Shown here piece after piece: positions 2,189 to 39,638 of a stretch of DNA of 64,000 bases (its first letter is position 1; each line of letters starts with the position of its first letter). A model generated the notes under the pieces. That model was not told the DNA's origin, searched no databases, and was given only the letters and a program-made list of their open reading frames with translations. The stretch lies in contig CBDDBZ010000036.1 of the NCBI GenBank assembly GCA_965225945.1, positions 160,001 through 224,000 on the forward strand. Reading direction: 5' to 3'. Origin of the DNA: Alphaproteobacteria bacterium. GTDB taxonomy: Bacteria; Pseudomonadota; Alphaproteobacteria; GCA-2731375. The position numbers and the translations under genes were made by a program.

Positions 2189-3598
2189 ATGGAGTACGTC
2201 CTCGACGTTGCGATCTACGTCGTCCCGTTTCTCGTGTTGATAACGGTGCTCGTCTACATCCACGAAATGGGCCACTACCTCGTCGCGCGCTGGTGCGACG
2301 TCCGGGTCGATACCTTTTCCATCGGCTTCGGGCGGGAGATCTATGGTTGGACCAACAGGCACGGCACGCGTTGGAAGATCTCCTGGCTTCCGCTCGGCGG
2401 TTACGTCAAGTTCTTCGGCGACATGAACGCCACCAGCGCGCCGAACGGAGAGATCCTCGATGCCCTGACGCCCGAGGAGCGCGAGGTGGCGTTCCATCAC
2501 AAGCGGCTCTGGCAGCGGACGGCGATCGTGATGGGCGGACCGGCCGCCAACCTGATTTACGCCGTGCTGGTGTTGGCGGTGGTGTTCATGACTTTCGGCG
2601 ACCGGCTCACGCGGCCCGAGGTGGGCTATGTCGTGCCCGACGGCGCCGCCGCCACCGCCGGCCTCGAGCGGGGCGATGTCATCCTGGCGGTCGACGGACG
2701 CGGGGTCGATCGCTTCGAGGCTGTGGCGCAGGTCGCCTTTCTCAATCCTGGCAAGCCCATGGAGCTCGACATTCGCCGGGGCGATTCTGAGTTGCGACTG
2801 CGCCTCGTGCCGACGCCGGTGACCACGGACCGTCTGGATGGCGTGGAGCGGACGATTGGCGATATCGGCTTTATCGCGGCGAGCCCCCCGCTGGTGGGCG
2901 GCGTGCGGGTCGGCAGCCCGGCGGAAGCGGCGGGTTTCCAACCGGGCGATCGAATCGTCGCGGTCGACGGCGTGGCGGTGGACGTGTTCTGGCAGCTCCA
3001 GGACATCGTCCGCGCGAGCGCCGGGCGCTCGCTGGATGTCGAGGTTCGTCGTGGCGAGGAGATGGTGAGGCTCGGCGTCGCGGCGGAAAAGACGGCGCTG
3101 CCGGACGGCTCGGGCGGGACCGTGGAGCGCTATCTGATCGGCATTCACGGCGCCCCGCCACCGCCGGTCCGCCTCGGCGTGTCGAAGGCTTTGTCGAGGG
3201 CGCTGACGTATTCCGTCGATCTGGTCGATCAGACGGTCGAATACCTGGGCCAGGTCGTGGCCGGCGATCGCGGCACCGAGGATCTGGGCGGGCCGATCCG
3301 AATCGCCCATGTTTCCGGTTTAGCGGCGAAACACGGTTTGGAGTCGTTCATAATGCTCTCGGTCCTCCTTTCGCTGAATCTCGGCCTGATCAACTTGCTG
3401 CCCGTGCCGGTGCTCGACGGCGGGCATTTGCTGTTGTACGGCCTCGAGGCGTTGCGTGGGCGTCCGCTGACGGAGCGCATGCAGGAGTACGCTTTTCGAT
3501 TTGGGCTCGTGGTGATATTGAGCTTGGCCATATTCGTGACCTGGAACGACCTGGTGCAGCTCCGCATCGTCGACGTCGTCGCCGGCTTGTTCTCGTAG
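2189..3598 (+). CDS. rseP: RIP metalloprotease RseP with two PDZ domains
   Basis: HEMGH and NLLPVPVLDGG motifs; position between dxr and bamA. Confidence 0.96.
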   Translation: MEYVLDVAIYVVPFLVLITVLVYIHEMGHYLVARWCDVRVDTFSIGFGREIYGWTNRHGTRWKISWLPLGGYVKFFGDMNATSAPNGEILDALTPEEREVAFHHKRLWQRTAIVMGGPAANLIYAVLVLAVVFMTFGDRLTRPEVGYVVPDGAAATAGLERGDVILAVDGRGVDRFEAVAQVAFLNPGKPMELDIRRGDSELRLRLVPTPVTTDRLDGVERTIGDIGFIAASPPLVGGVRVGSPAEAAGFQPGDRIVAVDGVAVDVFWQLQDIVRASAGRSLDVEVRRGEEMVRLGVAAEKTALPDGSGGTVERYLIGIHGAPPPPVRLGVSKALSRALTYSVDLVDQTVEYLGQVVAGDRGTEDLGGPIRIAHVSGLAAKHGLESFIMLSVLLSLNLGLINLLPVPVLDGGHLLLYGLEALRGRPLTERMQEYAFRFGLVVILSLAIFVTWNDLVQLRIVDVVAGLFS

Positions 3599-3620: not shown

Positions 3621-5897
3621 ATGAAGCTACGCGCCGCGTTCGTCGCGACCTTGGCCGCGATCGTGCTTCTGTTCGTCCTGCTCCAGGCGGCATGGGCACA
3701 GGGCGGCGTCATTCGTGAAATCCGCGTCGTCGGCAACAACCGCATCGAGGCGGACACCGTACTCTCTCGCATGCTGCTGGCGCCGGGCGACGCATACGAT
3801 GCGGCGCGCGCCGACCGCTCGCTCAAGGCGCTGTTTGATTCGGGTCTCTTCGCCGACGTCGTCTTCCACCTTCAGGGCGAGGTGTTGGTAGTGACAGTGC
3901 TGGAGAACCCGGTGATCAACCGGATTGCCTTCGAGGGCAACAAGCGCATACCCGACGAGAGCATGGAGCAGGAGGTGGCCCTCAGGCCGCGCGAGGTCTA
4001 CACGCGCAGCAAGATCCAGTCCGCCTCGAACCGCATTATCCAGCTCTATCGCCGCTCGGGTCGCTTCGCCGCCACCGTCGAGCCGAAGATCATCAACCTC
4101 GAGCAGAATCGCGTCGACGTCGCCTTCGAGATCAACGAGGGGCCGCTGACCGGTGTCGGCAAGATCGACTTCATCGGCAATCGCGCCTTCGACGACGGCG
4201 ATCTGCGCGATGTGATCGTGACCAAGGAGACAGCATGGTATCGCTTTCTGACCTCCGCCGATTCCTACGATCCCGATCGCCTGACGCTCGATCGCGACCA
4301 GCTTCGCCGGCACTACCGCGACGAAGGCTACGCCGATTTCCGCGTGCTCTCCTCGGTGGCCGAGCTCACCGCCGATCGCAGGTCCTTCTTCATCACCTTC
4401 AGCGTGGACGAGGGCGAGCCGTATGATTTCGGCGAGATCGACTTGACGACGACGCTCAAGAACTTGGATGTGGAGCAGCTGCGCGGTGAATTGACGACGA
4501 TCCAGGGCGAACGCTTCGACGCCTCCACGATCGAGGACTCGCGGGTCAATCTGGCCGACGCGCTCGGCCAGCTCGGCTATGCCTTCGTCGAGATCCGCCC
4601 CCGGATCAGCCGCGATCGGGAGGCGTTGACCATAGCGATTGCTTACGAGGTCAACGAGGGGCCGAGGGTCTATGTCGAGCGAATCAACATCACCGGCAAC
4701 GTGCGCACGCTCGACAAGGTGATCCGCCGCGAGTTCCGTTTCGCCGAGGGGGATGCCTTCAATACCTCGAAGTACCGCCGATCGCGTCAACGCGTACGCA
4801 AACTGGGCTTCTTCGACCGGGTCGAGTTGACTCGCCAGCCCGGCAGCCAGCCGGACCGCGTGATCGTCAACTTGGACGTGCAGGAGCGCTCGACCGGCGA
4901 GCTGATCTTCGGCGCCGGCTTCTCGAGCTCGGAGGCGCTGATCGGCGACATCTCGATCCGCGAGCGCAACCTGTTGGGCCGCGGCCAAGATCTCAGGATT
5001 TCCGTCGCTGCGTCTTTCGTTCGTCAGCAGATCGACATCTCCTTCACCGAGCCCTACTTTCTGGATCGCGAGTTGGCCTTCGGCGTCGACGCCTTTCACA
5101 CCCGCCGCGATCTCCAAGCGCGGAGCTCGTTCGATCAGAGGTTGACCGGGGGCCGCCTTCGCACCGCGTTCGACATTAACGAACGGCTGCGCGCCTCGCT
5201 CAACTACGGGTTACGGATCGACGTGATCAACGACGTCGATGCCTCCGCCTCGGAGTTCATTAAAGCCGAGGAGGGCGAGGAAGTGACCTCGTCCATCGGC
5301 TATCGGTTGGCTTACGATACCTTGGACGATCGGTTCCTGCCGACCACCGGCTACCGCGTGTCGGTGGTCCAGGAGTTCGCCGGTCTCGGTGGCAGCTCCC
5401 GCTATGTCCAGACCACCGCCAAGTTCGTCTACTACTACCCCTTCACCGACGACTGGGTCGGCAGCATTTTGTTGAATGGCGGTCAGATCATCGGGATCGA
5501 CGACGACATCGGCATCATCAATAGATTCTTCCTCGGCGGCGATAACCTACAGGGCTTTGAGTCCGGCGGCGTCGGTCCGAGGGACGCGGTGACCGACGAC
5601 TCTCTCGGCGGCAACATCTTCGCCGCGGCGACGGCGGAACTCCGCGTGCCGCTCGAATTTTTCAGTGACCTCGGCGTGAGCGGCCGCCTCTTTACCGACA
5701 TCGGTACCCTCTACGACATCGACGTCAACGGCGGCGGTACCTTGCTCGATTCGACCGCGCCCCGCATGTCGGTCGGTGCCGGGATTTCCTGGCGCTCGCC
5801 GTTCGGACCGATCCGGATGGACTTCGCACAGGCGATCGTCAAGGAGAATTTCGACAAGGAGGAGTTCTTCCGTTTCAGCTTTGGCACGAGGTTCTGA
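3621..5897 (+). CDS. bamA: Outer membrane protein assembly factor BamA
   Basis: Signal peptide, POTRA repeats, beta-barrel, SPFGP motif and C-terminal FRFSFGTRF. Confidence 0.97.
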   Translation: MKLRAAFVATLAAIVLLFVLLQAAWAQGGVIREIRVVGNNRIEADTVLSRMLLAPGDAYDAARADRSLKALFDSGLFADVVFHLQGEVLVVTVLENPVINRIAFEGNKRIPDESMEQEVALRPREVYTRSKIQSASNRIIQLYRRSGRFAATVEPKIINLEQNRVDVAFEINEGPLTGVGKIDFIGNRAFDDGDLRDVIVTKETAWYRFLTSADSYDPDRLTLDRDQLRRHYRDEGYADFRVLSSVAELTADRRSFFITFSVDEGEPYDFGEIDLTTTLKNLDVEQLRGELTTIQGERFDASTIEDSRVNLADALGQLGYAFVEIRPRISRDREALTIAIAYEVNEGPRVYVERINITGNVRTLDKVIRREFRFAEGDAFNTSKYRRSRQRVRKLGFFDRVELTRQPGSQPDRVIVNLDVQERSTGELIFGAGFSSSEALIGDISIRERNLLGRGQDLRISVAASFVRQQIDISFTEPYFLDRELAFGVDAFHTRRDLQARSSFDQRLTGGRLRTAFDINERLRASLNYGLRIDVINDVDASASEFIKAEEGEEVTSSIGYRLAYDTLDDRFLPTTGYRVSVVQEFAGLGGSSRYVQTTAKFVYYYPFTDDWVGSILLNGGQIIGIDDDIGIINRFFLGGDNLQGFESGGVGPRDAVTDDSLGGNIFAAATAELRVPLEFFSDLGVSGRLFTDIGTLYDIDVNGGGTLLDSTAPRMSVGAGISWRSPFGPIRMDFAQAIVKENFDKEEFFRFSFGTRF

Positions 5898-5900
5898 GCC

Positions 5901-6473
5901 GTGTTGGGGACTGTCCCGCGCGCGGCGTTGCTCGCCCTGGCGATTCATATGTGCTTGCCGCTGATCTGGGATAGCGGAGCGCGCGCCGCCGAGGCGATGC
6001 CTCCCGCCTTGATCGCAATTCTCGACTTCAAGCGGGTGATGCGGGACAGCGCGGCGTCCAAGGACATCCGGCGCCAGATCGAAGCCCACCGAAAGTCGTT
6101 TCAAGCGGAAATCAAGCGGGCCGAGGGTAAGTTGCGCGAGGAGGAGGAGAGCCTCAAACGGCAGCGCGCAACCATGGCACCCGATGTCTTCGCCAAGCGG
6201 CGGCGCGCATTCGAAAAAAAAGTGATCGCGCTGCAACGCAAGGTCCAGAATCGCACCCGCGCCCTCGACAATGCTCATAGCCGAGCCATGGCGGAACTCA
6301 GGAAGCCTTTCAGAAAGTTGATCTCCGACTTGGCCAAGGAACGCGGTTACAACTTCATCATCGACAACCGGCACATCTACATCAAAATCGACGGTTACGA
6401 CATCACTCCAGAGGTGATGCGACGTCTCGACGAGAAGGTGCCGAAGATCATGGTGCCCAGGCCGGAAAAATGA
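5901..6473 (+). CDS. skp: OmpH/Skp periplasmic chaperone
   Basis: Signal peptide, IAILD, long coiled coil, DITPEV; directly after bamA. Confidence 0.88.
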   Translation: MLGTVPRAALLALAIHMCLPLIWDSGARAAEAMPPALIAILDFKRVMRDSAASKDIRRQIEAHRKSFQAEIKRAEGKLREEEESLKRQRATMAPDVFAKRRRAFEKKVIALQRKVQNRTRALDNAHSRAMAELRKPFRKLISDLAKERGYNFIIDNRHIYIKIDGYDITPEVMRRLDEKVPKIMVPRPEK

Positions 6474-6925
6474 ACGAGGGCGAGGGCGAGGTCGTCGACA
6501 TCTCGCGGATCATGGCGATGATTCCCCATCGCTACCCGATGCTGTTGATCGATCGGGTGGTCGATGTGGTGGCGGGCAGCTCGGCCCGAGGGATCAAGAA
6601 CGTCACGATCAACGAGCCGTATTTTCAGGGCCACTTTCCGAACTTGCCCGTGATGCCGGGTGTGCTGATCGTCGAGGCCATGGCGCAGACGGCGGCGATC
6701 TTGGTGGTACATAGCCTCGGCGCGGAGGCGGAGGGGCGCCACGTCTACTTCGTGTCCATCGACGATTGTCGCTTTCGCCGCCCCGTCAGACCGGGGGACG
6801 TGATGTATATCGACGTCGAGAAGCTTCAGGCTCGGCGCAACGTCTGGCGCTTCAGCGGTACCGTCTTGGTCGGCGGACAACGCGCGGCCGAGGCGAAGTT
6901 CGCCGCGATGATCCTCGACGATTAG
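6470..6925 (+). CDS. fabZ: 3-hydroxyacyl-ACP dehydratase
   Basis: IPHRYPMLLIDRV and FQGHFP..PVMPGVLIVEAMAQ motifs; ATGA overlap with skp. Confidence 0.97.
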   Translation: MNEGEGEVVDISRIMAMIPHRYPMLLIDRVVDVVAGSSARGIKNVTINEPYFQGHFPNLPVMPGVLIVEAMAQTAAILVVHSLGAEAEGRHVYFVSIDDCRFRRPVRPGDVMYIDVEKLQARRNVWRFSGTVLVGGQRAAEAKFAAMILDD

Positions 6926-6988
6926 AGCCATTCAAGATTGCTAGAACCCACTCGTTCCCCCGGCCCGGCGCTTCGGCGGATGCCCATG

Positions 6989-7189
6989 CTATAGCAGGTA
7001 GAGGAGGGTGGCCGACGCGACCGCCACGAGCGCCAGCCAAGCGCTCGCGCGGCGAAACATTGGGCGCGGCGGCTTCGAATTGTCGTTCGCGCCCTGGAGT
7101 CGCGCGCGCCGGGCGAGGCCGAGGTAGCTGGCCGCCGTCCGCGTCGGTGGCGCCAGTGCCCGGGGCCGATGGTCCGCGCTCCGCTTCAT
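6989..7189 (-). CDS. Small hypothetical protein with a C-terminal transmembrane segment
   Basis: 66-aa ORF directly downstream of gltA, containing GANDN and ending in a hydrophobic stretch (WLALVAVASATLLYLL). Confidence 0.45.
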   Translation of the reverse strand: MKRSADHRPRALAPPTRTAASYLGLARRARLQGANDNSKPPRPMFRRASAWLALVAVASATLLYLL

Positions 7190-7222
7190 CCTCGCCCCTC
7201 GCCCCGGTCCGCGCTCGAGTCT

Positions 7223-8518
7223 TCAGCCCCGCCGGTGAAGTGGCACGTACTTGCGCGGCTTCTCGCCGGTGTAGATCTGCCTCGGTCGGCCGATCTTCTG
7301 CATTGGATCCTCGATCATCTCGTTCCATTGCGCGATCCAGCCGACGGTGCGGGCGAGCGCGAAGATCGCCGTGAACATGCTGGTCGGGAAGCCCATGGCC
7401 CGGAGAATGATGCCGGAATAGAAGTCGACGTTGGGATAGAGCTTGCGCTCGACGAAATAAGCATCCTCCAGCGCGATTTTCTCCAGCTCCATCGCCAGTT
7501 TCAGCGTCGGCTCGCTCTTGACCCCCAGCTCGTCAAGCACCTCATGGCAGGTCTGCTGCATCACCTTGGCGCGCGGATCGTAGTTCTTGTAAACCCGATG
7601 GCCGAAGCCCATGAGCCGGAAGGGGTCATCCTTATCCTTCGCCTTGGCGATGAATTGGTTGATTTTCGAGACATCACCGATCTCGCCCAGCATGGCGAGC
7701 ACGGCCTCGTTGGCGCCGCCGTGCGCCGGGCCCCACAGACAGGCGATGCCGGCCGCGATACAGGCGAAGGGATTGGCCCCGGAGGAGCCGGCGAGCCGCA
7801 CCGTCGAGGTCGAGGCGTTCTGTTCATGGTCGGCGTGGAGGATGAAGATGCGGTCCATCGCCCGGATCAACACGGGGTTGGGCTCGTAGTCCTCCGCCGG
7901 CACGCCGAAGGTCATGCGCAGGAAGTTCTCCGTGTAGCTCTGATCGTTCCTGGGATAGAGGAAGGGTTGGCCGATGGAATATTTGTACGCCATCGCCGCG
8001 ATCGTCGGCATCTTGGCGATCAGCCGGTAACTCGCCACCATTCGGTGATGGGGATCGTCGATATCCAGGCTGTCGTGATAGAAGGCGGAGAGGGCACCGA
8101 CCACGCCGACCATGATCGCCATCGGGTGCGCATCGCGGCGGAAGCCGCGGAAGAACTGCACCAACTGCTCGTGGATCATCGTGTGGTAGGTGACGTTGTG
8201 CTCGAACTCGTCCTTCTCATCGCGCGTCGGCAGGGCGCCATAGAGCAGCAGGTAGCAGACCTCCATGAAGTCGCTGTGTTCGGCCAAATCGTCGATCGAA
8301 TAGCCGCGGTAGAGCAGGATGCCTTCATCGCCGTCGATGAAGGTGATCTTGCTCTCGCAGCTCGCCGTCGCGACGAAACCGGGATCATAGGTGAAATGGC
8401 CAGTCTCCGCGTAGAGGCGGCGGATGTCGATCGCTTTTGGGCCCATCGAGCCACTCATCAGCGGGAGCTCGTAGCCCTGGTTCGTGGTGGCGTCGGTCAG
8501 CGTGACGTTTTCGGTCAT
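7223..8518 (-). CDS. gltA: Citrate synthase (type II)
   Basis: [32 protein letters not shown] and YPNVDFYSG motifs. Confidence 0.97.
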
Positions 8519-8721
8519 TCGTTGGTCCCGATTCGTTGTGGCACCGCGTCGTGGGGCGCCATGGCGCGGACGAGGCGTCATGAACCGCCGCGCGGCTCGA
8601 TGTATCCTTCCCCGTACTATAGGCGAAGCCGGTCAAGCCGGAAATGGGTTCGATTCCCAGGTCGCGTCGGGCGCCGATCAAAAAGATTAACCACGATAAT
8701 TAAGTGCTTGAATAACAATAA

Positions 8722-10128
8722 TTATTCGGCATTGATATCTTCCAGGCGAGCGAGACTTTCCGCGCGCCCGAGCGACCACAGCACGTCATAGATTCCGGGC
8801 GAGACGGCACGTCCCGTCAGCGCGGCGCGTAGCGGTTGGGCGACCTTGCCGAGCTTCAGCCCGCGGTCCTCGACGAAGCCGGCGATGCTCGCCTCCAAGC
8901 TTTCCGGCGACCAAGGCTCGATCGCGCCGAGGATTCCGGCGACCTCGCCCAGGAGTGCCCGCGCGTCGGCGTTGCTGAGCGCCTTGGCCGCCTTCTGGTC
9001 GGGAGCGAGCGGGCGTTCGGCGAGGCAGAAGGCCGCTGCCTCGGCCAACTCGACCACCGTCTTGGCTCGGCTGGCGAGCGCCGGCAGCGCGCGGCGGAGG
9101 CGGGAGACCGTCTCCTCGCCGAGGGTGCGACCGGTCTCCCGCTCGATTTGGGCGACGAGATGCGGCAACAGCAGGTCCTCGCCGGCGGTCCTGAGGTAGT
9201 GGGCGTTGACGCTGTTCAGCTTGGCGAAATCGAAGCGCGCCGCCCCCTTGTTGACGGCGGCGAGGTCGAACCATTCGATCGCCCTAGGCCGGCTGATGAT
9301 CTCGTCGTCGCCGTGGCTCCAGCCGAGACGCAGCAGGTAGTTGCAGATCGCCTCCGCCAGATAGCCCATGTCGCGATAGTCCTGGACGCCAAGCGCCCCA
9401 TGCCGCTTGGAAAGCTTGGCCCCGTCTTCGCCGTGAATCAGGGGGATGTGCGCGAAGGCCGGTGGCGTCCAGCCCATCGCCTGGTAGATCGTCAGTTGCC
9501 GCGCGGCGTTGGTCAGGTGATCGTCGCCCCGGATCACGTGGCTCACCTCCATGTCGTGATCGTCGACCACCACCGCCAGCATGTAAGTCGGCGTGCCGTC
9601 GCTCCGCAGCAGCACCATGTCGTCGATCTGCGCGTTCTGGGTCACCACGTCACCCTGGACCGAATCGTGGACGATCGTCTCGCCCTCGCGCGGCGCCTTG
9701 ATGCGAATCACCGGGTCGCCGCCAGCGGGCGCTTCCGCCGGGTCGCGGTCGCGCCAGCGCCCGTCATAGAGCATCGAACGTCCTTCGGCCCGGGCGGCCG
9801 CGCGCATCGCCGCCAACTCCTCCGGAGTGGCCCAGCAGCGATAGGCCTCGCCCTGGCGCACCAATTCGCGCGCCACCTCGGCGTGCCGCTCGGCCCGGGC
9901 GAATTGCGAGACCACCTCGCCGTCCCAATCGAGGCCGAGCCATTCGAGGCCGTCGAGAATGGCGGCGATCGCCGCCTCGCTCGATCGGGCGCGGTCGGTA
10001 TCCTCGATCCTGAGGCGGAAGCGACCGCCGTGGTGGCGGGTGAAGAGCCAGTTGAAGAGCGCCGTGCGCGCGCCACCGATATGGAGGAATCCCGTCGGCG
10101 AGGGGGCGAAGCGGGTGACGACGGTCAT
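8722..10128 (-). CDS. gltX: Glutamate--tRNA ligase
   Basis: [14 protein letters not shown] (HIGH) and KLSKR (KMSKS) motifs. Confidence 0.97.
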
Positions 10129-10214
10129 TCGTGTTCCCCGAAGGATGACAAGGGGAGCGGAAGAGCGGCACACTCCCTAGCACAACCTCCGGATCATGGC
10201 GATAGAACCCAATC

Positions 10215-12366
10215 ATGACGGTCGAGAGCAGATCGGGCCGACGTCGCGAAGGTGCCATCGGGGCAGCTTCGAGGTCCGTCTCCGCCTGGGCGCGAGGTCC
10301 GGGCTTGGTGATCGGGGCGCGGCTGGCGGCGGAGCGCGATCGTCTCGCGCTGTGGACGCCGGTGGCGATCGGTCTCGGCATCGCGGTCTATTTCGCCTTG
10401 CCGGCGGAGCCGAGCGATCACGTCGGTCCCGCGCTGCTGGCGCTCGCCGTCTTCGGGTTGCTGGTCAGCCGGTATCGAGGGCCGTTCCTGCTGCTGGCGC
10501 TTGGCTTCGGGGCGGCGGCGGTCGGCTTCCAGGCGGCCGCTTGGCGCACCGCCTGGGTCGCGGCGCCGGTGCTCGAGAAAGACATCGGGCCGACATGGGT
10601 CACCGGGCGGATCGTGGAGACCTCGATCAAGGGGCGGGGCTGGCGGCTCGTTCTCGACCAACTGGAGATTCCCCGTCTCGATCCGGCGCGTGTCCCGGCG
10701 CGCGCGCGGATCTAAGGTCTGGAGCCTCGGTGACGCGCCCGTCCGGGTCGGCGATTCCGTGCGTCTCCTGGCGAAACTGATGCCGCCATCGGGACCGGCC
10801 GCGCCGGGCGCTCACGACTTCGCCCGCGCCGCCTACTACCAGCGATTGGGCGCGGTCGGCTTCGCCCTGTCGTCGCCCGAGCGTTCGGCCCTCGGCGAGG
10901 CGAGCCGGTGGGATTGGCGGATCCACGTGGCCGCCTGGCGGGAGGCGATCTCGGCCCGGGTGCGAGACGCCCTCCCGGGCGCGCCGGGTGCCGTCGCCGC
11001 GGCCCTGATGACCGGCGATCGCGGCGCCATCGCCGAATCCGTCCTGAAAGATCTCCGCAATTCCGGTCTCGCCCATCTCCTCGCCATATCGGGGCTGCAC
11101 ATCGGCTTGATCGCGGCGGTGCTGTTTTTCGCCAGCCGCGCCGGCCTGGCGCTGATCGAGCCCTTGGCGCTCTGTCGGCCGATCAAGAAATGGGCGGCGC
11201 TGATCGCCCTCGTCGGCGCCTTCGGCTATCTCGTCCCCACCGGAGCGACGGTGCCGACGCAGCGTGCCTTCGTGATGACCGCCTTGGTGCTGATCGCGGT
11301 GCTGATGGATCGACGGGCGATTTCGATGCGGCTCGTCGCGTGGGCGGCGGCGCTGGTCCTGCTGTCGGCGCCGGAAAGCCTGCTTTCGGTCAGCTTCCAG
11401 ATGTCCTTCGCCGCGGTCGTGGCCTTGATCGCGGGCTACGAGACTCTCGGTCCGCGATTCTCAGCGTGGCGCGCGGGCGGCGGGCCGGGCCGGAGAATAC
11501 CGCTCTACGTCGCCGGCGTCGCGCTCACGACGGTCATCGCGAGCCTCGCCACCGCGCCCTTCGCCGCCTATCACTTCAATCGCATCGCCCATTTCGGCCT
11601 TCTGGCGAACCTCCTCGCCGTGCCGACCATGGCGCTCTGGATCATGCCCTGGGCGGTGCTGACCTATGTCGTGATGCCGCTCGGCCTCGAGGCCGCGCTG
11701 CTCGCCATGATGGGCTTGGGCATCGAGGCGGTCCTGGCGACGGCGCGGACCGTCGCCGAATTGCCGAACGCCACGAGCCAAGTCGCCTCGATGGCGCCGT
11801 TCACGCTGGCGCTCACCGCTCTCGGCGGCCTTTGGCTCTGCCTCTGGCGTGGCAGATGGCGCCTGTTCGGCCTCGGTGCGGTTCTGATCGCTTTCCTCGC
11901 GGTCCCGTTCTCGCGGCCGCCGGACATTCTGATCGACGGGCAGGGCAAAATCGTCGCGCTCAGGGACGAGGCGGGCCGAGTGCACCTTTCCATGCGGCGG
12001 GTCAAGGGATACGTGCCGTCCGTCTGGCTTCGCCGCGCGGGCGAGGCGGCGTTCCACCACGATGCCTGGCGTTGTGACGGGCTCGGCTGTATCGCGCGGC
12101 TAAAGACGCGGCGGATCGCTCATGTCTGGGACGCGCGTGCCTTGCACGAAGACTGTACCCTCGTCGCCATCGTCCTCAGCAGGACACCCGTTCGCGACTG
12201 CCCGGGCCCGCAAATCGTGCTCGATCGATTCGCTCTCTGGCGCGAGGGACCGCATGCCATTTGGCTGGAGGAGGGCGGCGCGCGCGTCGTCTCGAGCGCC
12301 GCCGTGCGAGGCGACTGGCCCTGGGTGCCGAAACGCGCCCGGGGTGGGCGCCGGGGAACTCAATAG
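10215..12366 (+). pseudogene. comEC: ComEC/Rec2 competence protein, split by a frameshift at about 10713
   Basis: N-terminal membrane part is ORF 10215-10715. The core (GLAHLLAISGLHIG, SFQMSFAAV) is in the frame of ORF 10501-12366. The junction cgg atc T aag gtc looks like one extra base, so this could be a sequencing error. Confidence 0.8.
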
Positions 12367-18190: not shown

Positions 18191-19534
18191 GTGTCCCGGG
18201 CCGGCCGTATCGCTGAAAGCAATTCCGACTGGACGGATGCTGCTCTAGCGGCCGGGCTCGCGGCGGCTTTCCTCTGGATTTTTCCAAGCCTCGCACAAGA
18301 CCTCGGGACCGCGAGCACCGTCGAGGGGCTGCGCTGGGTCGACCCCGGGACGGGCCGGATCGGCGTGGTGGAGCGACCCCGGCGATATCTGGCCGACGTG
18401 GTCCGGGGTGGTCGCCTCTCCAACCTGGCGCGACTGGGTGAGCTCGCCTTTCGCCAGCCGGGCGTGCTCGGGGGCGAGGCCCGTCTCGCCGCGCTCTCCT
18501 GCGCGACGTGTCATCCGAACGGCGGCGCCAATACCGATTTTCTGGTGCCCGGGCTCTCCGACAAACCCGGCAACGTCGACGTCACACATAGGCTCTTCGC
18601 CGACTTTCTCGACGACGGGCGCTTCAACCCGCTCAACATCCCGAGCCTGCGCGGGATCGCGGCGACGGCGCCTTACGGTCGTGACGGGCGGATTGCGAGC
18701 CTCCGCGAGTTCACCCGGCAAGTGATCGTGCAGGAGTTCATGGGCGAGGAGCCGGCGCCTTGGCTGCTGGATGCGCTGACCGCCTATCAGAATCAACTCG
18801 CCTTTCCACCGGCGCCAGACGGTGTGAGCGACGATTCGGCGATAGCGCGGGGGCGCGCGCTCTTCCGGCGGCCGTTCCCCGCGGCGCCGGGCTCGAGTTG
18901 CGCGGCCTGCCATCCCGCTGGCGCCGCCTTCCTGGACGGGCGGCGGCACGACGTCGGGACCGGGCGCCCCCCCGGGCACTTGTTCGACACGCCGAGCCTG
19001 CTGGGGCTCGCCGAGACGGCGCCCTATTTTCACGATGGACGGGCGCCGGACCTCGCGGCGGTGGTGACGCACTTCGATACCGCTTTCGCCCTCGCGCTGA
19101 CGAGGGGAGAAGTCGACGACCTGGTGGCCTATCTGGGCCACGTCGGCCGCGTGCCGGAGGCGAGGACGCCGATCATGCTCGAGCGCGAAGTCGGGCGGCT
19201 GTTGTCGTTCCTTCCGCTCCTCGATTGGGCGGGGAAGCGGGAGTTCGCGCAAATCGGCGGCTTCGTTTCGACCGCGCTCCGGCGGGAGGCCGGGTTGATT
19301 CACGCGCGGCTGCCACGTGCGGAGGGCGCGCGGACAATCCTGCTCGGCTGGTCCAGGGCTCTCCGCGCGATGCGGGAGCGTTTCGAGCGCCGCGACTTCA
19401 TCGCCGCCAGGCGCGCCTACCGGGGCCTGGCGGAAAAACTGTCGTCCGAGGCGAGGGGGGTGACGGCGGCCGCGCCGGGCTCGCTCTATCGAGACGGCGA
19501 AATCGAGGCGGAGCGCCAGCGTCGTCAGCGATAA
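18191..19534 (+). CDS. Di-haem cytochrome c peroxidase/MauG-like protein
   Basis: Two CxxCH motifs (CATCH, CAACH), PSLRG..TAPY and TPSL..TAPYFHDG; signal-like N-terminus. Start is uncertain. Confidence 0.8.
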   Translation: MSRAGRIAESNSDWTDAALAAGLAAAFLWIFPSLAQDLGTASTVEGLRWVDPGTGRIGVVERPRRYLADVVRGGRLSNLARLGELAFRQPGVLGGEARLAALSCATCHPNGGANTDFLVPGLSDKPGNVDVTHRLFADFLDDGRFNPLNIPSLRGIAATAPYGRDGRIASLREFTRQVIVQEFMGEEPAPWLLDALTAYQNQLAFPPAPDGVSDDSAIARGRALFRRPFPAAPGSSCAACHPAGAAFLDGRRHDVGTGRPPGHLFDTPSLLGLAETAPYFHDGRAPDLAAVVTHFDTAFALALTRGEVDDLVAYLGHVGRVPEARTPIMLEREVGRLLSFLPLLDWAGKREFAQIGGFVSTALRREAGLIHARLPRAEGARTILLGWSRALRAMRERFERRDFIAARRAYRGLAEKLSSEARGVTAAAPGSLYRDGEIEAERQRRQR

Positions 19535-21429
19535 TTCGGACTGTCGAAGATCGAGTTCAGGACGCGGTCGTTGACCTCGACGACATGGATCTTCTCCAGG
19601 CCGCGATTGAACTGCTCCAGCAGGTCGTCGGTCATCGATTGCTCGAGCCCCCGCGCCAGCGTCTTCAGCTCGTCGCCCGACTTGGCGAATTCCACTTCGA
19701 CCACGTCGAGGACGCGCACGACCACCTGCGCCTCGCCGCCGACCGCCCCGCCCTGGACCACGTCATCCAACTTCGCGGCGAAGACCTCGTCGACCACGCC
19801 GGGGGAAAGCCCGGCCGCGCGGCCCATTTGCCGCCGATCGAGCTTTTCGCGTTTGGCGACGCTCATCCCAGCGCCCTTGGCGAGGCTCGGGAGCGCTGCG
19901 CCACCCCGAGCCTTCCGGGCGAGTTCCTCGACCCGCTTTTCGGCCGCCGCGCGCCGCGCCTCCCGGGTCCAGTCGGCCAGCACGGACTCGCGAATTTCCG
20001 CCAGCCGGCGCGGCGCCGGCGGCTTGATGGCGTCGACCCGCACGGCATAATAGGCGCCGACGTCGGTCTCCTCGAGCCTCGGCTCCTCGCCGCGCTCGAT
20101 CGAGAACGCCTGTCGAAGGAGGCCGGGAATTCGGGGAATGGCGGCGACCGGCTTCCCGTCGGGACCCCGGCCGTTGGCGTCGACCTGGGCGACCTTGGTC
20201 ACTTTCAAATCCAGCTCGCCCGCCGTCTGCTCGAGCGTGGCCCCGCCGGCGAGCGCGTCCTCGACTTTGTTGGTGAGCTCGAAGAGCGCGTCGCCCGCCC
20301 GTTGCAGCCGAATCTCGCCCTCGATCCGCTTGGCCACCTCCTCGAAGCTCCGCACGCCGCCGGGGGTGAGTTTCGTCACCCGGAACAGGTACCAGCCGAA
20401 CGGACCTTGCACCGGCTGGGAAATCTCGCCCTCTTTCAAGGCCTGAATCGTGGCCTCGACCTCGCCCGGCAGATCGCCCTTGCGGACGGTGCCGAGCTTG
20501 ACCTGGCCCTCCCCGAGGCCCGCCATCTCCTTGGCCAACGCGAGGAAGTCGCCACCGGCGGCGAGTCGCTCCGAGATCTCGCGGGCCTTGTCCTCCGCTT
20601 GGACCCGGATCTGCTCGACCTCGCGCGCCTCCAGGACGGTGAATTCGTCGATGCGATTATCGTAACTCTCGCGGACCTCGCCTGCGGTGACGGAGACCAG
20701 CTCCAGGAGGTTCTCGGGCCGCAGGACCAGGAAGGAAAGGGTGCGATACTCCGGCGCGATGTAGCGGGTGAGGTGCGCCTCATGATAGCTCTCCAGCACA
20801 TCGTCGCCGGGTATCTGGGGCGCCGGCAGGGCGTCGTGCTTCAAGGTCAGGACCTCGACCGAGCGGCGCTGGCGCTGATGGCGCAGGATCGCCTCCACCA
20901 TCGCCTTCGGCGCGTGGCCGCCGAGGGTTACGGAATCGATGAGCTGCTGGAGGCGCAAATCGCTCCGCCGGTTCTGCAGAAAGAACGGCTCCGACATGCC
21001 GTTCTGCCGCAGGACCTGCTGGAATGTTTCGGCGTCGAACTGGCCGGTCGGCCCCTGGAAGGCGGGGTTGGTGGCGATCTCTCGGCGGATGACGTCGTCG
21101 GCGACGGCAAGGCCCAGATCGCGCGTCGCCTGGTCGTAGAGCGCGCGATTGACGAGGCTCCGTAGTGTCTCGTCGGCGAGGCCCATCTGGCGGGCCTGCT
21201 GAGCGTCCATGTTGCCGCCGAATTGGCGCTGCAAGCGCGAGAGGGCGTTGTTGAAGGCGGTCGTGAATTCGCCCTGGCCGATCTCGATGTCGCCGACCTC
21301 GGCCACCGCCGTGTCGGGGCTGACGCGGAAAATGTCGCCGATGCCCCAAACCGCGAAACTCAGGACGAGGACGCCGAGAAAGATCTTGACGATCCAGGTA
21401 CCGGCGCCGCGCCGCAAGGAATCCAGCAT
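19525..21429 (-). CDS. ppiD: Periplasmic folding chaperone PpiD (SurA N-terminal plus rotamase domains)
   Basis: MLDSLR..LSFAVWGIGD N-terminal anchor and ISQPVQGPFGWYL; divergent from tpiA. Confidence 0.88.
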   Translation of the reverse strand: MLDSLRRGAGTWIVKIFLGVLVLSFAVWGIGDIFRVSPDTAVAEVGDIEIGQGEFTTAFNNALSRLQRQFGGNMDAQQARQMGLADETLRSLVNRALYDQATRDLGLAVADDVIRREIATNPAFQGPTGQFDAETFQQVLRQNGMSEPFFLQNRRSDLRLQQLIDSVTLGGHAPKAMVEAILRHQRQRRSVEVLTLKHDALPAPQIPGDDVLESYHEAHLTRYIAPEYRTLSFLVLRPENLLELVSVTAGEVRESYDNRIDEFTVLEAREVEQIRVQAEDKAREISERLAAGGDFLALAKEMAGLGEGQVKLGTVRKGDLPGEVEATIQALKEGEISQPVQGPFGWYLFRVTKLTPGGVRSFEEVAKRIEGEIRLQRAGDALFELTNKVEDALAGGATLEQTAGELDLKVTKVAQVDANGRGPDGKPVAAIPRIPGLLRQAFSIERGEEPRLEETDVGAYYAVRVDAIKPPAPRRLAEIRESVLADWTREARRAAAEKRVEELARKARGGAALPSLAKGAGMSVAKREKLDRRQMGRAAGLSPGVVDEVFAAKLDDVVQGGAVGGEAQVVVRVLDVVEVEFAKSGDELKTLARGLEQSMTDDLLEQFNRGLEKIHVVEVNDRVLNSIFDSPNYR

Positions 21430-21599
21430 GATCTTATTGCTTCCCGTCGTCTCGTCGTCGGCCCCCGCCCAAAACCCCCGGCGAAGACGCCGCATCATAA
21501 ATAGGCCACCATTCGGGAACAAGCTGGCGAGCCCCCGAGGCCTCTGCTAAATGAGCCCCGGAACGACCGGCGTCAACGCTGGAAGAAGGGAGGCGGACC

Positions 21600-22884: not shown

Positions 22885-24536
<1,652 letters not shown>

Positions 24537-24612
24537 GGACCACCGCCGTTCGTTTTGACAGCCGGCGAGGCCGACGTTAAGGAGGCGGGCGCTAGTGGAT
24601 AGAATCCACTAA

Positions 24613-25914
<1,302 letters not shown>

Positions 25915-35917: not shown

Positions 35918-36077
35918 CCGGCGCCTCCCTCCGACAGGCCCGCCAATCTAAGCTACTTTCCGGCCCGAGCGAACTCCTCGCCGTAGCGTCCCTCGAAACG
36001 TGCCGCCGATGGTCATCGTGGGGCGCCCTAACCTCGCGAGCCCGGCGAGAGCTAGTATGGTGATAATGCCTTATGGT

Positions 36078-36398
36078 TCAACGCGATCCGAGTTCGTATT
36101 CATAGCTGATCAACCTCTTTCTAGCGCTTTCAATCTCTTCGACTGTAAACAACTCATGCCATTGCGTTTCATCCACGATCATTACCTCGACGGTGAGGTC
36201 TAGCCGGCCTCTAAGGTAAAGCTGCGTATATCCATCGGATGGATTGGCCGTGTTAATAAGGAATTTCGCCGTTCCCAACCCGCCACGTTCATGCAACATC
36301 TTTAGAAATACCGTGGCATTGTATTCAGCTTCGGCCTTGGCCCGTCGGTAAATGTCTAGCATTGCCACGTCGAATTTTTGTTTCAAGGTCACCGTCAT
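36078..36398 (-). CDS. Hypothetical protein of the AT-rich islet
   Basis: 106-aa helical ORF (YNAT.F..M...GG..TAK, SDGYT.L...GRLDLTVE...W.ELF..EEI..ARKRL). This pattern is recalled from nuclease-associated proteins and is unverified. Confidence 0.7.
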   Translation of the reverse strand: MTVTLKQKFDVAMLDIYRRAKAEAEYNATVFLKMLHERGGLGTAKFLINTANPSDGYTQLYLRGRLDLTVEVMIVDETQWHELFTVEEIESARKRLISYEYELGSR

Positions 36399-36462
36399 CG
36401 TTAGTCACCCTCTAGAGATGTGGAAATTGTCATCGCCATAGAAGTTGCCAATGCAATACAAG

Positions 36463-37211
36463 CTATTCACTAGCGTAGTAGGCGAACGTATCAAGCGGAG
36501 CTGCTCGAATATGCCAAATGCCTTTCTCTTCAGTGTCCTCTGGTAGCGGAGCCATATGCCAGTTCTGATTTGCCACCCAATCAATCAGTGCCCTGTAACT
36601 ATGTTCTTTCCCGGTCAACGTTTCTCCCGTAACTTCACGTAACCAAGGTCTGGATTTTCCGTTAATGACTACATATATATCTGGACGTGCAATGTCATCA
36701 GGCGTGAAGCTAACCGCTTTCCAATCCCGCCCAATCTACAAAAATCACGAAATATCACTCCGGCGTTCGTCGCAACCTCGAAATCACTGGCACTCCTCAC
36801 CTGCTTCAGAATTTGAAGCACTGTATTTCGATCGCCAGCGCGGTTGCTATCTCGCAAGAAGCTATTGGTTGCTAAAACTCGACGCCCAATACTGCCCAAG
36901 AGGGCGTCGCCATGCATAATATCGTGGATAGGCGCTATAAGATTTTGTTGGTCTCCATCCAAATCACTCCAATCAGCAGCATCAAATAAATACTGCGCCC
37001 GCGCGATTGTGTCTCTCCAACTTGGTCTATCGCCAAATACGCTCAGCTTGTTCGAAAACTTGCGTTTTTGCTTCCAAAGATCATCCTGTGCCTGTAGCAA
37101 CGCCAAATACTTTGCCCAGTTTGGTCCATTCTCCTTTCGGAAAACATCAAGCACTCCCCTAATATAGGGGGTCCGATTCAGTTTCGCGACCATAGCTCTT
37201 CCTATTCTCAT
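36463..37211 (-). pseudogene. Frameshifted gene resembling the C-terminal part of PLD-type restriction-like proteins
   Basis: ORF 36669-37211 ends ..LASRLMTL. Other frames continue ARPDIYVVINGKS..Y..LIDW....W..P.P.D and IWHIRAAPLDTF..*, implying two frameshifts. Confidence 0.55.
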
Positions 37212-37963
37212 CAGTGGTTCAGTATAACGGCATCGCCGTTCTTCGCAACGATCAACGCCGAGCTTTCCAATAGTCTCCGCTCAGTCTGGCTACTTAGGTT
37301 AACTGACATTTTTTCTTCATTTATCGTTAGTGCTGCCTCTGCGCCAATCGTCCACAAGGTTACCAATGACTTCGACTTCAAAGTCTCTGTTAGAGATTCG
37401 TTGAGACGTATATTAGTTTTTTGGCTGGAGCCTGGAGTTCTGTAATGTTGCATTCTGCGCCTTAGGTTCTCGGCTTCGCCAATGTAAACTCGTATCTCGC
37501 TCCCGGTATCGACTTCAAACATATAGACGCCCGGTCCGGCCCCGAGTGGCGGGAAAACCAAACGTTGCTTCCAATCAAGGTTAATCGAACCGGCAAGCTT
37601 CCAATCGAACTTAGCGGTTATGGTGTAGGCTCTTTGGGCATCAGCATTTGTGCCCGCAAGGGTGTGGGCCTCTTCAACATCAGCATCGCGGGGGTTGCTC
37701 AGGTGGCCATCCACCACGTCAATCGGTATAAAGGTAAGGCGCTCTTCTCTCAGCTTCACTTCGCTAGTCCGCCAGCCGGCGTCAAGCCACGAATGGCTCT
37801 GGACGTGCGATGACGTGCTTTCGTTTGCCCACCATGCCGGATAGCGCCTAGCACTTGCCGGCAAGGGGAAACCCAAAACATCTTCAATGTCCTCGAATGT
37901 TACTTTCCATTCTTGGAGTGGCCGGCTGGCCAGATAATCCCGTAATGGCGCGTATTTACTCAT
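37211..37963 (-). CDS. DUF7662-like N-terminal domain fused to a GIY-YIG-like nuclease
   Basis: MSKY.PL..YL..TF.DIE.VLG.LP.SA....WWAN...W..AGW N-terminus, then GVY...YIGE..NL.RR..HY. Confidence 0.75.
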   Translation of the reverse strand: MSKYAPLRDYLASRPLQEWKVTFEDIEDVLGFPLPASARRYPAWWANESTSSHVQSHSWLDAGWRTSEVKLREERLTFIPIDVVDGHLSNPRDADVEEAHTLAGTNADAQRAYTITAKFDWKLAGSINLDWKQRLVFPPLGAGPGVYMFEVDTGSEIRVYIGEAENLRRRMQHYRTPGSSQKTNIRLNESLTETLKSKSLVTLWTIGAEAALTINEEKMSVNLSSQTERRLLESSALIVAKNGDAVILNH

Positions 37964-38020
37964 AATCCTTCCCGATTTGATTGGTCAAATTGCCTCGGAG
38001 TGACCTGTCCGTCACATTTT

Positions 38021-38251
38021 CTACCGAATACAACTCCCACAGAACGTCACATTCTCGATACGGATGGCGCGGCGCGCAGCAACCAAGGCGCCGTTCGGCT
38101 CTTCATGCTCGCCCAGCATACGCCAACGGCCATACTTTGGGTTGGTGCCGCCCTTCTGGCCTCGCCCGCCATTGCAGTGCGGACAACTCTCGCGATGCAC
38201 CTTCACTTTGTGTCCGTCTGCCTGCCAGTTTTCATATGCGTAATATTGCAT
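38021..38251 (-). CDS. Small putative zinc-binding protein
   Basis: 76 aa with HxxxCxxC and a C-terminal CxxC; AGAGGA ribosome-binding site upstream. Confidence 0.7.
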   Translation of the reverse strand: MQYYAYENWQADGHKVKVHRESCPHCNGGRGQKGGTNPKYGRWRMLGEHEEPNGALVAARRAIRIENVTFCGSCIR

Positions 38252-38286
38252 TGGGGTTCCTCTTTGTGTCCCGTCGAAGGAGCACC

Positions 38287-38335
38287 CCAATACCACACGA
38301 TAGTATATTTGTCAATAAAAAAGGTTAACCTTTTT
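38287..38335 (-). promoter_or_regulatory. Putative promoter and operator for the AT-rich islet
   Basis: Minus-strand TTGACA-N17-TATTGG (38315-38287), abutting the perfect palindrome AAAAAGGTTAACCTTTTT (38318-38335). Confidence 0.5.
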
Positions 38336-38499
38336 ATAGAAAGTACATGCCGCCCCGATTCACGGATCGGGGAGACCGACCAACGCTGACATGATGCCGC
38401 CGGTGAGAAATATATCCATCGTGGGAGCCTTGCTCGCTAGGGAAGGTTGTTTTGGCGCCCTTACCCGTTGTGCGCGAACAGGACTCCCTATCGATTCCG

Positions 38500-38528
38500 G
38501 CGAGGAAGACGACGGGTCGTTCCTTCAC
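38500..38528 (-). pseudogene. Possible 5' stub of a ParE/RelE toxin
   Basis: GTG overlaps the antitoxin stop (GTGA). MKERPVVF resembles a RelE/ParE start, after which similarity is lost. Confidence 0.4.
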
Positions 38529-38823
38529 CCACTCCCCTTCCGGCTGGCGGCATTATGGGCGCGAATCTCGGAGAGGATGGATTCGGCGTCGACTCCTCGC
38601 GAGGGATCGGATTTCATGGCATCGTAAACTGGGACGACTTCTGCGCGTACCGCTTCGCCGCCCTTCGCCATGTTTCCACGGCCGCATCGCGTTGCCGCAA
38701 CGCCCGCAGGCCTTCTCGGACGACTTCTCTCGCCGAGGCGTAGTTGCCGGACTTCACCATCTCGTCGAGATAGGCCGCCTGTTCCGCAGGTAGGCTGATT
38801 GTACGTTTTTCAACGTTCGGCAT
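38525..38823 (-). pseudogene. ParD-like ribbon-helix-helix antitoxin, frameshifted by a short insertion
   Basis: RTISLP..SGNYASAREVVREGLRAL..RDAAVETW, then the expected RAEVVPVYDAMKSDPSR..* continues in another frame. Confidence 0.8.
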
Positions 38824-38868
38824 GATAAATCTCCTTGGGATCGATCATGCCCAAATGTATGAATAATT

Positions 38869-39638
38869 CTTGCCTATCCGGTTATCACCCACACCCACTA
38901 TATGTAGTGTGTCTCCTTGGACTGCAGGCAAGGGCCGGCGCAGGCGCATTGAGGAGGCGATCCGGCTAATTCTTGATTGTTCTGAAAACCGAACCGGAGT
39001 TTAATTCACGTCACGTACTTAACATCGGGGGACGGAACGGTGGCGACCAAGGGAAAAACGAAGAAACCCACGGCCAGACGGGAAGCTGCTGATGAAACGA
39101 CATCGTCTGAGCGATTGACGGCACTAGTCGAAGAAAGCGACGCGCTGGCACGAATCGTTGCGAAGAACCCGTCCGCGCCTGTTAGTCTCCTGCGCGTTTT
39201 GAGTCGCAGCGAAGACGAAGCGACACGCAAGAACGTGATCCTCAATCCGTAATATTGCATTGGGGTTACTTCATATGACGTATTGAGCGAACTTGAAAAC
39301 CAGTTCACAGAGCTATTTGTGAATAATCCGGCACTCGAATCCTACAATTCAATGAAGCTCTGATTTCCTGGAATATTCCATCGGTGTCGTTCACCTCCGA
39401 TTTCAGATAAATTTCAATGAAGTGACGGTCCTTTATGCAACGTGGCGTTTTGCCAAATCCGACTCAATGATTAGGATTTCCACCACGCTAAAGTGTCGCC
39501 TAAAAGGCGCTACAATGCCGTCCGAGTCCCTGCTCGGCATCGCCGGAGATATCTCCGCTTCGACCTGCACCGAGCTTTACTCAGGAAAATGGGTGCACAC
39601 TACATATAGTGGGTGTGGGTGATAACCGGATAGGCAAG
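38869..39638. mobile_element. Non-autonomous IS1595-family (ISSod11-like) cassette, 770 bp
   Basis: Perfect 43-bp terminal inverted repeats starting CTTGCCTATCCGG, 8-bp target duplication GAATAATT (38861-38868 and 39639-39646), no transposase. Confidence 0.88.
39040..39363 (+). pseudogene. Passenger remnant with LRV/HEAT-like repeats
   Basis: VAKNPSAPVSLLRVLS.SED..TRKNVILNP*, then in frame TSYDVLSEL..QF.ELFVNNPAL. Confidence 0.6.

Follow-up and report, generated by a model that had tools for sequence, protein, structure and literature searches.

Loss of the lipid A and lipopolysaccharide genes in an alphaproteobacterial genus, with a candidate lipid module found in the same genomes

The shortened locus between bamA and gltA

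Lipid A is regarded as nearly essential in Gram-negative bacteria, and antibiotics are directed against it (LpxC, the Lpt system, polymyxins). The natural exceptions that live without it are few and mostly ancient, so that the steps by which it became dispensable cannot be reconstructed from them. Here we describe a 64,000-nucleotide stretch of DNA (the window) from an alphaproteobacterial genome, G000, in which the lipid A genes are missing from the locus between bamA and gltA, and we follow the loss of these and other genes of the lipopolysaccharide (LPS) system through the rest of the genome and its genus. The genes of the window were called from a listing of the open reading frames (ORFs), from NCBIfam and Pfam scans and by inspection of the raw sequence.

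The window opens with cdsA (3-869), dxr (1152-2066) and rseP (2189-3598, plus strand; TIGR00054, 277.6 bits), the last of which serves as the synteny anchor upstream of bamA. An intact bamA, coding for the outer-membrane protein assembly factor (3621-5897, plus strand; TIGR03303, 750.9 bits against a cut-off of 297), is followed by skp (5901-6473, plus strand). The product of the latter is an OmpH-like periplasmic chaperone that matches NF008047 only weakly (40 bits, below the cut-off), and the gene is syntenic with skp in ten loci of sister genera. It is joined directly to fabZ (6470-6925, plus strand; NF000582, 189.5 bits against a cut-off of 113) where the sister genera have lpxD. The raw sequence reads 'atga' at 6470-6473, and the start of fabZ thus overlaps the stop of skp, as a first, sequence-only reading of the window had observed. 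That reading had also put about 300 bp between fabZ and the convergent citrate synthase gene gltA (7223-8581, minus strand; TIGR01798, 790.6 bits); the spacer measures 297 bp (6926-7222) and takes the place of lpxA-lpxI-lpxB (about 2.8 kb) in the sister genera. Beyond it lie gltX, coding for glutamate-tRNA ligase and serving as a synteny anchor (8722-10173, minus strand; TIGR00464, 488.2 bits), and comEC (10501-12366).

The genome of the window amounts to 6.27 Mb in 39 contigs and is 96.55% complete with 5.58% contamination. Its genus comprises three sequenced species, the other two being G001 (7.4 Mb, 20 contigs) and G002 (8.0 Mb, 5 contigs), and belongs to an order consisting of a single family with 33 genomes. 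A search with FabZ across this family recovered the gene in 32 of the 33 genomes, and about 19 kb around it were compared for 12 of the 32: the two congeners, and ten genomes that represent five sister genera. The sequence-only reading had taken an order with lpxD, lpxA, lpxI and lpxB around fabZ to be the usual one, and this is indeed what the sister genera display: all ten loci have cdsA-dxr-rseP-bamA-skp-lpxD-fabZ-lpxA-lpxI-lpxB, with gltA-gltX next in nine of them. By contrast, the three genomes of the genus uniformly show bamA-skp-fabZ followed by the convergent gltA-gltX-comEC, without lpxD, lpxA, lpxI or lpxB. Over the same species bamA is 82-83% identical between G000 and its congeners. 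In G004, a genome of one of the sister genera, the skp/lpxD and lpxD/fabZ overlaps are 4 nt each; hence, the deletion of lpxD kept the same kind of start/stop coupling at the new junction of skp and fabZ.

We then searched the segment 5800-7300 with the LpxD, LpxA, LpxI and LpxB proteins of sister genera by very lax tblastn. No remnant was found: the best E-values of 0.04-0.06 are at chance level for 19 queries on a 1.5-kb target, and the best LpxB fragment lies on the wrong strand. This agrees with the earlier impression that the locus is free of lpx debris. The spacer itself is partly conserved in the three congeners (mean column identity 69%). It contains a 66-codon ORF with a hydrophobic C-terminus directly downstream of gltA (6989-7189, minus strand; G+C content at third codon positions 0.86), whose status as a gene is uncertain: by tblastn it is weakly conserved in G001 (51% over 41 residues) and G002 (41% over 63 residues) only, and it has no match in the ten sister-genus loci and none in Pfam.

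Losses at other sites and retention of the outer membrane

The sequence-only reading had proposed separate losses on either side of fabZ. This was right and understated, since at least three more syntenic gaps were found. One lies in the window itself, where pyrG (22908-24536, plus strand; Pfam CTP_synth_N and GATase) and the enolase gene eno (24640-25914, plus strand; Pfam Enolase_N and Enolase_C) are separated by a junction of 103 bp (24537-24639) that lacks kdsA and forms a second LPS-related deletion scar. In the sister genomes kdsA stands directly downstream of pyrG, the order being pyrG-kdsA-eno in G009 and pyrG-kdsA in G004. On contig C33 of G000, surA follows pepA after 456 bp, where G009 has lptF-lptG-lptD. 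On contig C32 no lpxC follows ftsZ, and a PrpF gene and a gene of the PEP-mutase/isocitrate-lyase family occupy the place that lpxC has in the sister genomes. The product of the latter gene, at 332 residues, has about the size of LpxC but is not a deacetylase. Finally, of the G009 operon comprising msbA, a gene for a 244-residue protein, waaA, lpxK and an lpxL-like gene, waaA is the sole member with a counterpart in G000. These sites all lie far from the ends of contigs that exceed 300 kb.

Genome-wide family searches covered LpxA, LpxB, LpxC, LpxD, LpxK, LptA, LptD, LptF/G, KdsA and KdsB in the three genomes of the genus, with the LPS-positive genomes G004 and G009, from sister genera of the same family, as positive controls (E-values of 1e-63 to 1e-122). 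LpxB, LpxC, LpxK, LptD, LptF/G and LptA (through its LptD_N domain) had no match in G000, G001 or G002 and were found in both controls. For LpxA and LpxD the three genomes gave only sub-threshold matches to hexapeptide repeats, while the controls scored above the cut-off. KdsA (TIGR01362) was without a match in G000 and G001 and KdsB without one in G000, with weak KdsB matches in G001 and both controls positive for either family. A cross-check by tblastn, using 19 LPS proteins of the sister genomes as queries against the whole of G000, concurred: apart from a WaaA-like gene it returned a single weak match, to a hexapeptide region resembling LpxD, and the best G000 match to the MsbA of G009 is a paralogue with 38.6% identity. 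Elsewhere in the family LpxC is the norm: it is present in 21 of 24 genomes other than G000, the misses being G001, G002 and one 81%-complete genome in 700 contigs, and in all 20 genomes of the order outside the genus that are at least 90% complete. The losses of these genes were thus observed in the family searches of G000 and its congeners. As a separate observation, the LPS-positive G009 has a second LptF/LptG pair beside a divergent paralogue of alpha-oxoamine synthase (G009:C2:5890199-5895391; L117).

An alternative is that the lpx, lpt and kds genes have been relocated, left unassembled or binned out, and that the collapse of the locus is a mere rearrangement. The fragmentation of G000 into 39 contigs, its incompleteness and contamination, and the synteny downstream of ftsZ, which is unlike that of G009, could be adduced in its favor. 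However, three independent assemblies, one of 5 and one of 20 contigs, lack matches while the positive controls are strong, the flanking genes abut at five sites, and the deletion sites are deep within contigs of 311-445 kb. An intact lpx set elsewhere in the genome, which the sequence-only reading had named as the sign of simple relocation, was looked for in all three genomes of the genus and not found. We accordingly reject a relocation or assembly gap as extremely improbable.

The claim of the same reading that the organism is a diderm was upheld by the outer-membrane machinery of G000. Besides BamA and Skp, the window codes for a PpiD-like periplasmic chaperone (19525-21522, minus strand; Pfam SurA_N_3 and Rotamase_2), and SurA, a second OmpH-like gene and three loci of the TolC family (OEP) are found elsewhere. 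None of the three species of the genus has lost MlaA, of which G000 and G001 have two copies each. Among the three species dN/dS is 0.13-0.16 for BamA and 0.24-0.29 for Skp, pointing to purifying selection. The second OmpH/Skp-like gene is situated near ftsZ (G000 C32:150962-151672; L140:963-1673), beside the above-mentioned PrpF and PEP-mutase/isocitrate-lyase-family genes. One might still suppose a lineage that is shedding its outer membrane toward a monoderm state, with the loss of LPS as one step, given that G000 and G002 have no TonB-dependent receptor barrel (PF00593) at an E-value of 1e-10 or better. Such receptors are however uninformative as a diderm marker, as the LPS-positive G004 also lacks them at this threshold (genomes of 5-8 Mb; G009 has six). 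Together with the constraint on BamA and Skp and the intact SurA, PpiD, second OmpH-like gene, TolC-family loci and MlaA, this leaves a monoderm transition with hardly any credibility.

Taken together, these observations make it very probable that the ancestor of the genus lost the whole lipid A/LPS system by clean deletions while its cells remained two-membraned. On this reconstruction the losses would comprise lpxA, lpxC, lpxD, lpxI, lpxB, lpxK and the lpxL-like gene, kdsA and kdsB, the MsbA orthologue, and lptA, lptD, lptF and lptG. They would have come about through a series of deletions at no fewer than five separate chromosomal sites, two of them in the window, of which the one between skp and fabZ preserved the start/stop overlap. 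The Bam/Skp/SurA machinery, the TolC-type channels and MlaA would have been kept, leaving two membranes in place. As no route to lipid A is known that dispenses with LpxA, LpxC, LpxD and LpxB, lipid A itself would be chemically absent.

Several points weigh against so complete a loss. The chemical absence of lipid A is something we infer from the gene content. The figures of 96.55% completeness and 5.58% contamination apply to the focal genome, though the congeners in 5 and 20 contigs agree with it. LptB, LptC, LptE, LpxH and KdsC/D lie outside the genome-wide searches, and LpxI was tested by tblastn in G000 only. Lastly, G002, alone in the genus, has a divergent kdsA (54% identical to that of G004) and two nearby kdsB-like fragments (G002:C2:921968-926977; L126), so that some chemistry of 3-deoxy-D-manno-octulosonic acid (Kdo) may persist there. 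The region could represent a Kdo cluster of the capsule type, or else acquired DNA in decay.

An orphan WaaA-like gene and a genus-specific lipid module

Two features of these genomes stand out beside the deletions, namely an orphan gene of the glycosyltransferase family GT30 and an acquired lipid module. The former is the WaaA-like gene on contig C37 of G000 (96167-97315; L110:7940-9442). Matches to PF04413 occur in all three genomes of the genus (E about 1e-49; 164.9 bits for the G000 protein), and the G000 protein is 42-51% identical to the WaaA of sister genera. It also aligns to Aquifex aeolicus WaaA (2XCI) over residues 47-380 with an E-value of 3e-17. It thus shares the GT30 N-terminal domain and a structure alignment with the WaaA/KdtA Kdo transferases (Aquifex 2XCI/2XCU). 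It differs from them in remaining below all five NCBIfam WaaA cut-offs (the best being NF004387, with 335.8 bits against 617), in the want of an acceptor pathway and of KdsA and KdsB, and in that its gene has moved away from lpxK. The genes for both the CMP-Kdo donor and the lipid IVA acceptor are missing in G000, with neither KdsA nor KdsB nor an Lpx pathway. Nonetheless, a dN/dS of 0.19-0.22 across the genus indicates that the gene is maintained by purifying selection. As the only survivor of the msbA-waaA-lpxK-lpxL operon, the enzyme presumably acts on a new substrate. Upstream of the gene in G000 are transposase genes of IS21, IS1595 and IS3 and a GGDEF-EAL gene.

One alternative is that enzymes unrelated to the known ones, or too divergent to be recognized, continue to produce a glycolipid similar to lipid A, and that this glycolipid is the substrate of the WaaA-like transferase. 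The purifying selection on a homologue of Kdo transferases and the divergent kdsA of G002 count in favor of such a scenario. Yet no homologue of LpxA, LpxC, LpxD, LpxB or LpxK was found at an E-value of 1e-3 except generic hexapeptide acyltransferases, the dedicated transport system (the MsbA orthologue, LptA, LptD, LptF and LptG) is gone too, and G000 has neither KdsA nor KdsB. We therefore hold this alternative to be very unlikely.

The second feature is a region of contig C35 of G000 (129924-139999; L108:7925-18000) with genes for an alpha-oxoamine synthase (AOS), an SDR-family reductase, a methyltransferase, an unknown 350-residue protein, a LigB-like protein, a CdsA-like paralogue, an ABC exporter, a CDP-alcohol transferase resembling the phosphatidylinositol-phosphate (PIP) synthases and an FGGY kinase. 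Six of these form the core of the module, namely the AOS, the SDR protein, the CdsA-like enzyme, the ABC exporter, the CDP-alcohol transferase and the xylulokinase-like FGGY kinase. A 678-residue 'fusion' of an unknown domain to the CdsA-like domain was dismissed as an antisense ORF over the LigB-like gene on the opposite strand. The six genes are contiguous in an unrelated metagenome contig (L133), around an AOS with 70% identity; this contig alone was informative among the seven loci from a metagenome scan for AOS relatives. The gene for the SDR protein, a short-chain reductase, begins at the stop codon of the AOS gene, to which it would be translationally coupled, and is conserved in all three genomes of the genus and in L133. 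Since within the order the module is confined to this genus, it would have been horizontally acquired.

The module AOS is one of two AOS loci in G000, the other being 5-aminolevulinate synthase; its counterparts in the congeners share 83-85% identity with it, and no match elsewhere in the family exceeds 39%. Its best relatives in the Protein Data Bank are the serine palmitoyltransferase (SPT) entries 8guh and 3a2b (236.7 bits), ahead of BioF/KBL (211 bits) and E. coli BioF (169 bits). It fails all the curated SPT models, the CFB-type (324 against 640 bits), the beta-type (275 against 500) and the alpha-type (222 against 670) alike, and the two AOS loci of G000 reach 222 and 185 bits against the cut-off of 670 of the alphaproteobacterial Spt model NF047603. 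The automatic names that the ESM Atlas gives for the AOS are mixed, being mostly 8-amino-7-oxononanoate synthase with one set of serine palmitoyltransferase, and do not decide the matter. Between members of the genus the CdsA-like paralogue shows 62-100% identity; elsewhere in the family only housekeeping cdsA is found, with at most 43% identity. The CDP-alcohol transferase is closest to the archaetidylinositol-phosphate (AIP) and PIP synthases and fails the curated models (NF040950, 140.5 against 180 bits; NF045883, 90.8 against 170; NF052561, 74.4 against 350); by sequence it is a relative of the PIP and AIP synthases and not a demonstrated member. No MIPS, IPC synthase (BT_1522) or PIP phosphatase was found within the module.

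These affinities suggest that the module might make an anionic lipid of the phospho-polyol type, perhaps built on a sphingoid base, which the MsbA-type ABC exporter would flip for delivery to the outer membrane. Such a lipid could fill the role that anionic sphingolipids have in lipid A-less Caulobacter. The retention of MlaA is weak evidence that the membrane is asymmetric and that its outer leaflet consists of something other than phospholipid. That the product of this module is what fills the outer leaflet is the reading we prefer, but a tentative and somewhat doubtful one. As to the suggestion of the sequence-only reading that another outer-leaflet lipid is in use, we can only infer it, the module being a candidate set of genes. 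A still bolder version would hold that the genus swapped LPS for an acquired and undescribed anionic phospho-polyol (sphingo)lipid system, with the GT30 enzyme decorating the lipid, and that the loss of lipid A, far from being peculiar to sphingomonads, occurred at least four or five times in free-living Alphaproteobacteria with a different solution each time; this we regard as unlikely.

A number of observations speak against a part for the module in the outer leaflet. No NCBIfam cut-off is reached by the AOS, which scores highest with the BioF model (356 against 426 bits), ahead of the CFB-type SPT model. With no other bioF candidate seen in G000, it could be a plain BioF. In G001 the module extends over two contigs and the FGGY gene was not found adjacent. 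In G000 and G002 three unrelated genes intervene between the AOS-SDR pair and the head-group genes. Neither a ceramide synthase nor an inositol-phosphate synthase was identified. AOS homologues of 55-65% identity are common in Gamma- and Betaproteobacteria, presumably with LPS. In five other LpxC-less alphaproteobacterial genomes (see below), the AOS has a 46% match in one and at most 38% in the other four, and the WaaA-like gene is present in none. Hence, by these comparisons, neither gene is a general requirement for the loss of LPS, and we rejected both the AOS as a common marker of LPS-less Alphaproteobacteria and the retention of WaaA as a general feature of such losses.

The chief competing explanation is that lipid A was lost with no special substitute, the outer leaflet consisting of ordinary glycerophospholipids to which ornithine lipids or hopanoids may be added, and that the AOS/CDP-alcohol module is unrelated, serving for instance biotin synthesis and an inner-membrane phospholipid. 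The BioF model as the top match of the AOS, the split of the module in G001 and the four LpxC-less genomes without a close AOS homologue all favor it, as does the fact that LPS-deficient laboratory mutants of Acinetobacter, Neisseria and Moraxella live with phospholipid leaflets. It is harder to reconcile with the retention in all three genomes of MlaA, the remover of outer-leaflet phospholipid. Moreover, among solved structures the AOS is nearer to serine palmitoyltransferases than to BioF, its gene is coupled to that of a reductase, and the module has its own ABC exporter and, in the order, is confined to the LPS-less genus. On balance, we place this explanation only a little short of even.

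Phylogeny, recurrence of the loss and comparison with known systems

The position of the genus was examined with a tree of five proteins (Dxr, RseP, BamA, GltA and GltX; 2300 columns; quick IQ-TREE run under LG+G4 with SH-aLRT support only). It has 47 rows: the window, and those 46 of the 92 examined loci in which four or more of the markers were present. The three genomes of the genus form a clade with 100% support, nested in the family (also 100%), of which G004 branches first. This nesting within an LPS-bearing family indicates that the loss is derived. The family itself is placed among Rhodospirillales-like lineages, and the named BamA relatives come from metagenome-assembled genomes (MAGs) labelled Alphaproteobacteria, Rhodospirillaceae and Minwuiales and from Oceanibacterium hippocampi (59% identity). 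The sequence-only reading had held that the lineage does not look sphingomonad. Its place in an order of its own in this tree, which includes no Sphingomonadales genome, bears this out, as does the failure of both alpha-oxoamine synthases against the alphaproteobacterial SPT model.

The same collapse of the locus is seen in 11 or 12 of 80 named loci; as these were drawn with peptide patterns from the FabZ of G000, the count is no measure of prevalence. Ten alphaproteobacterial genomes with a collapsed bamA-(skp)-fabZ locus were searched for LpxC genome-wide (G049-G058, loci L016-L019, L036, L037, L040, L054, L083 and L086; completeness not reported), and LpxC was absent from all ten. They comprise the cultured isolate Desertibaculum subflavum, a complete 'Reyranella sp.' MAG chromosome, MAGs labelled Defluviicoccus, Aestuariivirga and Paracoccaceae, and five others. 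The Asaia bogorensis label of one MAG (L019) looks wrong, since this genome falls together with the 'Reyranella' MAG. On the tree the lpx-free state requires at least five changes, four of which are forced by well-supported branches, implying that lpx loss was repeated in Alphaproteobacteria. Full-text searches of the literature, with subscription-only papers and supplements outside their scope, found no report of lipid A loss in these lineages. The ten genomes suggest that LPS-free outer membranes are commoner in Alphaproteobacteria than the searched literature indicates.

LPS-free diderms are already known as a kind, and what the genus adds is a recent and unusually clean case in an unstudied order. 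The Sphingomonadaceae are LPS-free Alphaproteobacteria with glycosphingolipid outer leaflets. Like them, the genus is an alphaproteobacterial diderm without lipid A genes that has kept outer-membrane assembly and has a sphingolipid-type enzyme as a candidate. It differs in belonging to its own single-family order, in lacking an Spt of the alphaproteobacterial type (NF047603, 222 and 185 against 670 bits) and in having a candidate module that combines an SPT-like enzyme closest to the Bacteroidetes/CFB kind with a PIP-synthase-like transferase. It also differs in retaining the WaaA-like gene and in that its loss is so recent that the complete LPS system persists in sister genera.

A model for the proposed mechanism is provided by Caulobacter crescentus, where, according to Zik et al. 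2022 (Cell Rep, PMC9393093), a delta-lpxC delta-fur strain builds an outer membrane without lipid A and anionic sphingolipids (ceramide phosphoglycerate) are key to fitness. Both are alphaproteobacteria with such a membrane; however, the Caulobacter strain is a laboratory mutant whose growth and envelope are impaired, whereas here the state is natural and genus-wide in genomes of 6-8 Mb, and the Caulobacter spt/cpg genes are not those of the module. The inositol-lipid cluster BT_1522-BT_1526 of Bacteroides thetaiotaomicron, with BT_1523 as the PIP-DAG synthase (Heaver et al. 2022, Nat Microbiol, PMC9246714, which also names the Sphingomonadaceae as sphingolipid producers), offers a second parallel. 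The CDP-alcohol transferase of the module is related to BT_1523, with scores below the cut-offs (NF052561, 74 bits; NF045883, 91 bits), and an SPT-type enzyme occurs in the same organism in both cases. In place of an MIPS, an IPC synthase and a PIP phosphatase, the module has its own CdsA-like enzyme together with an FGGY sugar kinase and an ABC exporter. A further difference is that Bacteroides keeps its LPS. A third comparison is with lipooligosaccharide-deficient Acinetobacter baumannii, in which mutants of lpxA, lpxC or lpxD represent a viable loss of early lipid A genes. These are single-gene lesions arising under colistin selection, with the Lpt and late genes remaining and intermediates that are toxic, while in the genus both the pathway and the transport system have been erased.

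As the loss is confined to one genus, and its sister genera have preserved both the full set of genes and their order, a direct comparison can show what changed along with it. Such a comparison brings out the genes that would have been acquired (the lipid module), those kept selectively (the WaaA-like gene and MlaA) and those erased. The genus, which is free-living, may thus serve as a recent natural case of Gram-negative life without lipid A and as the source of a candidate new pathway for an outer-membrane lipid.

Some further features of these genomes may be recorded. The 5-aminolevulinate synthase gene of G000 (C33:93866-94980; L109:7735-9023) is split into two overlapping ORFs of 319 and 122 residues, while G002 has a single ORF of 403 residues; the split is a frameshift, reflecting either a pseudogene or an assembly error. 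Within the window, positions 36000-39700 form an island of low G+C content (0.49-0.56 against about 0.68), with small ORFs lacking family matches and a 250-residue DUF7662/GIY-YIG protein (37211-37963, minus strand). A class II-like ribonucleotide reductase gene lies next to the island, which was probably acquired. The single Rfam match in the window is a tRNA gene at 49462-49534 (minus strand; 69.4 bits).

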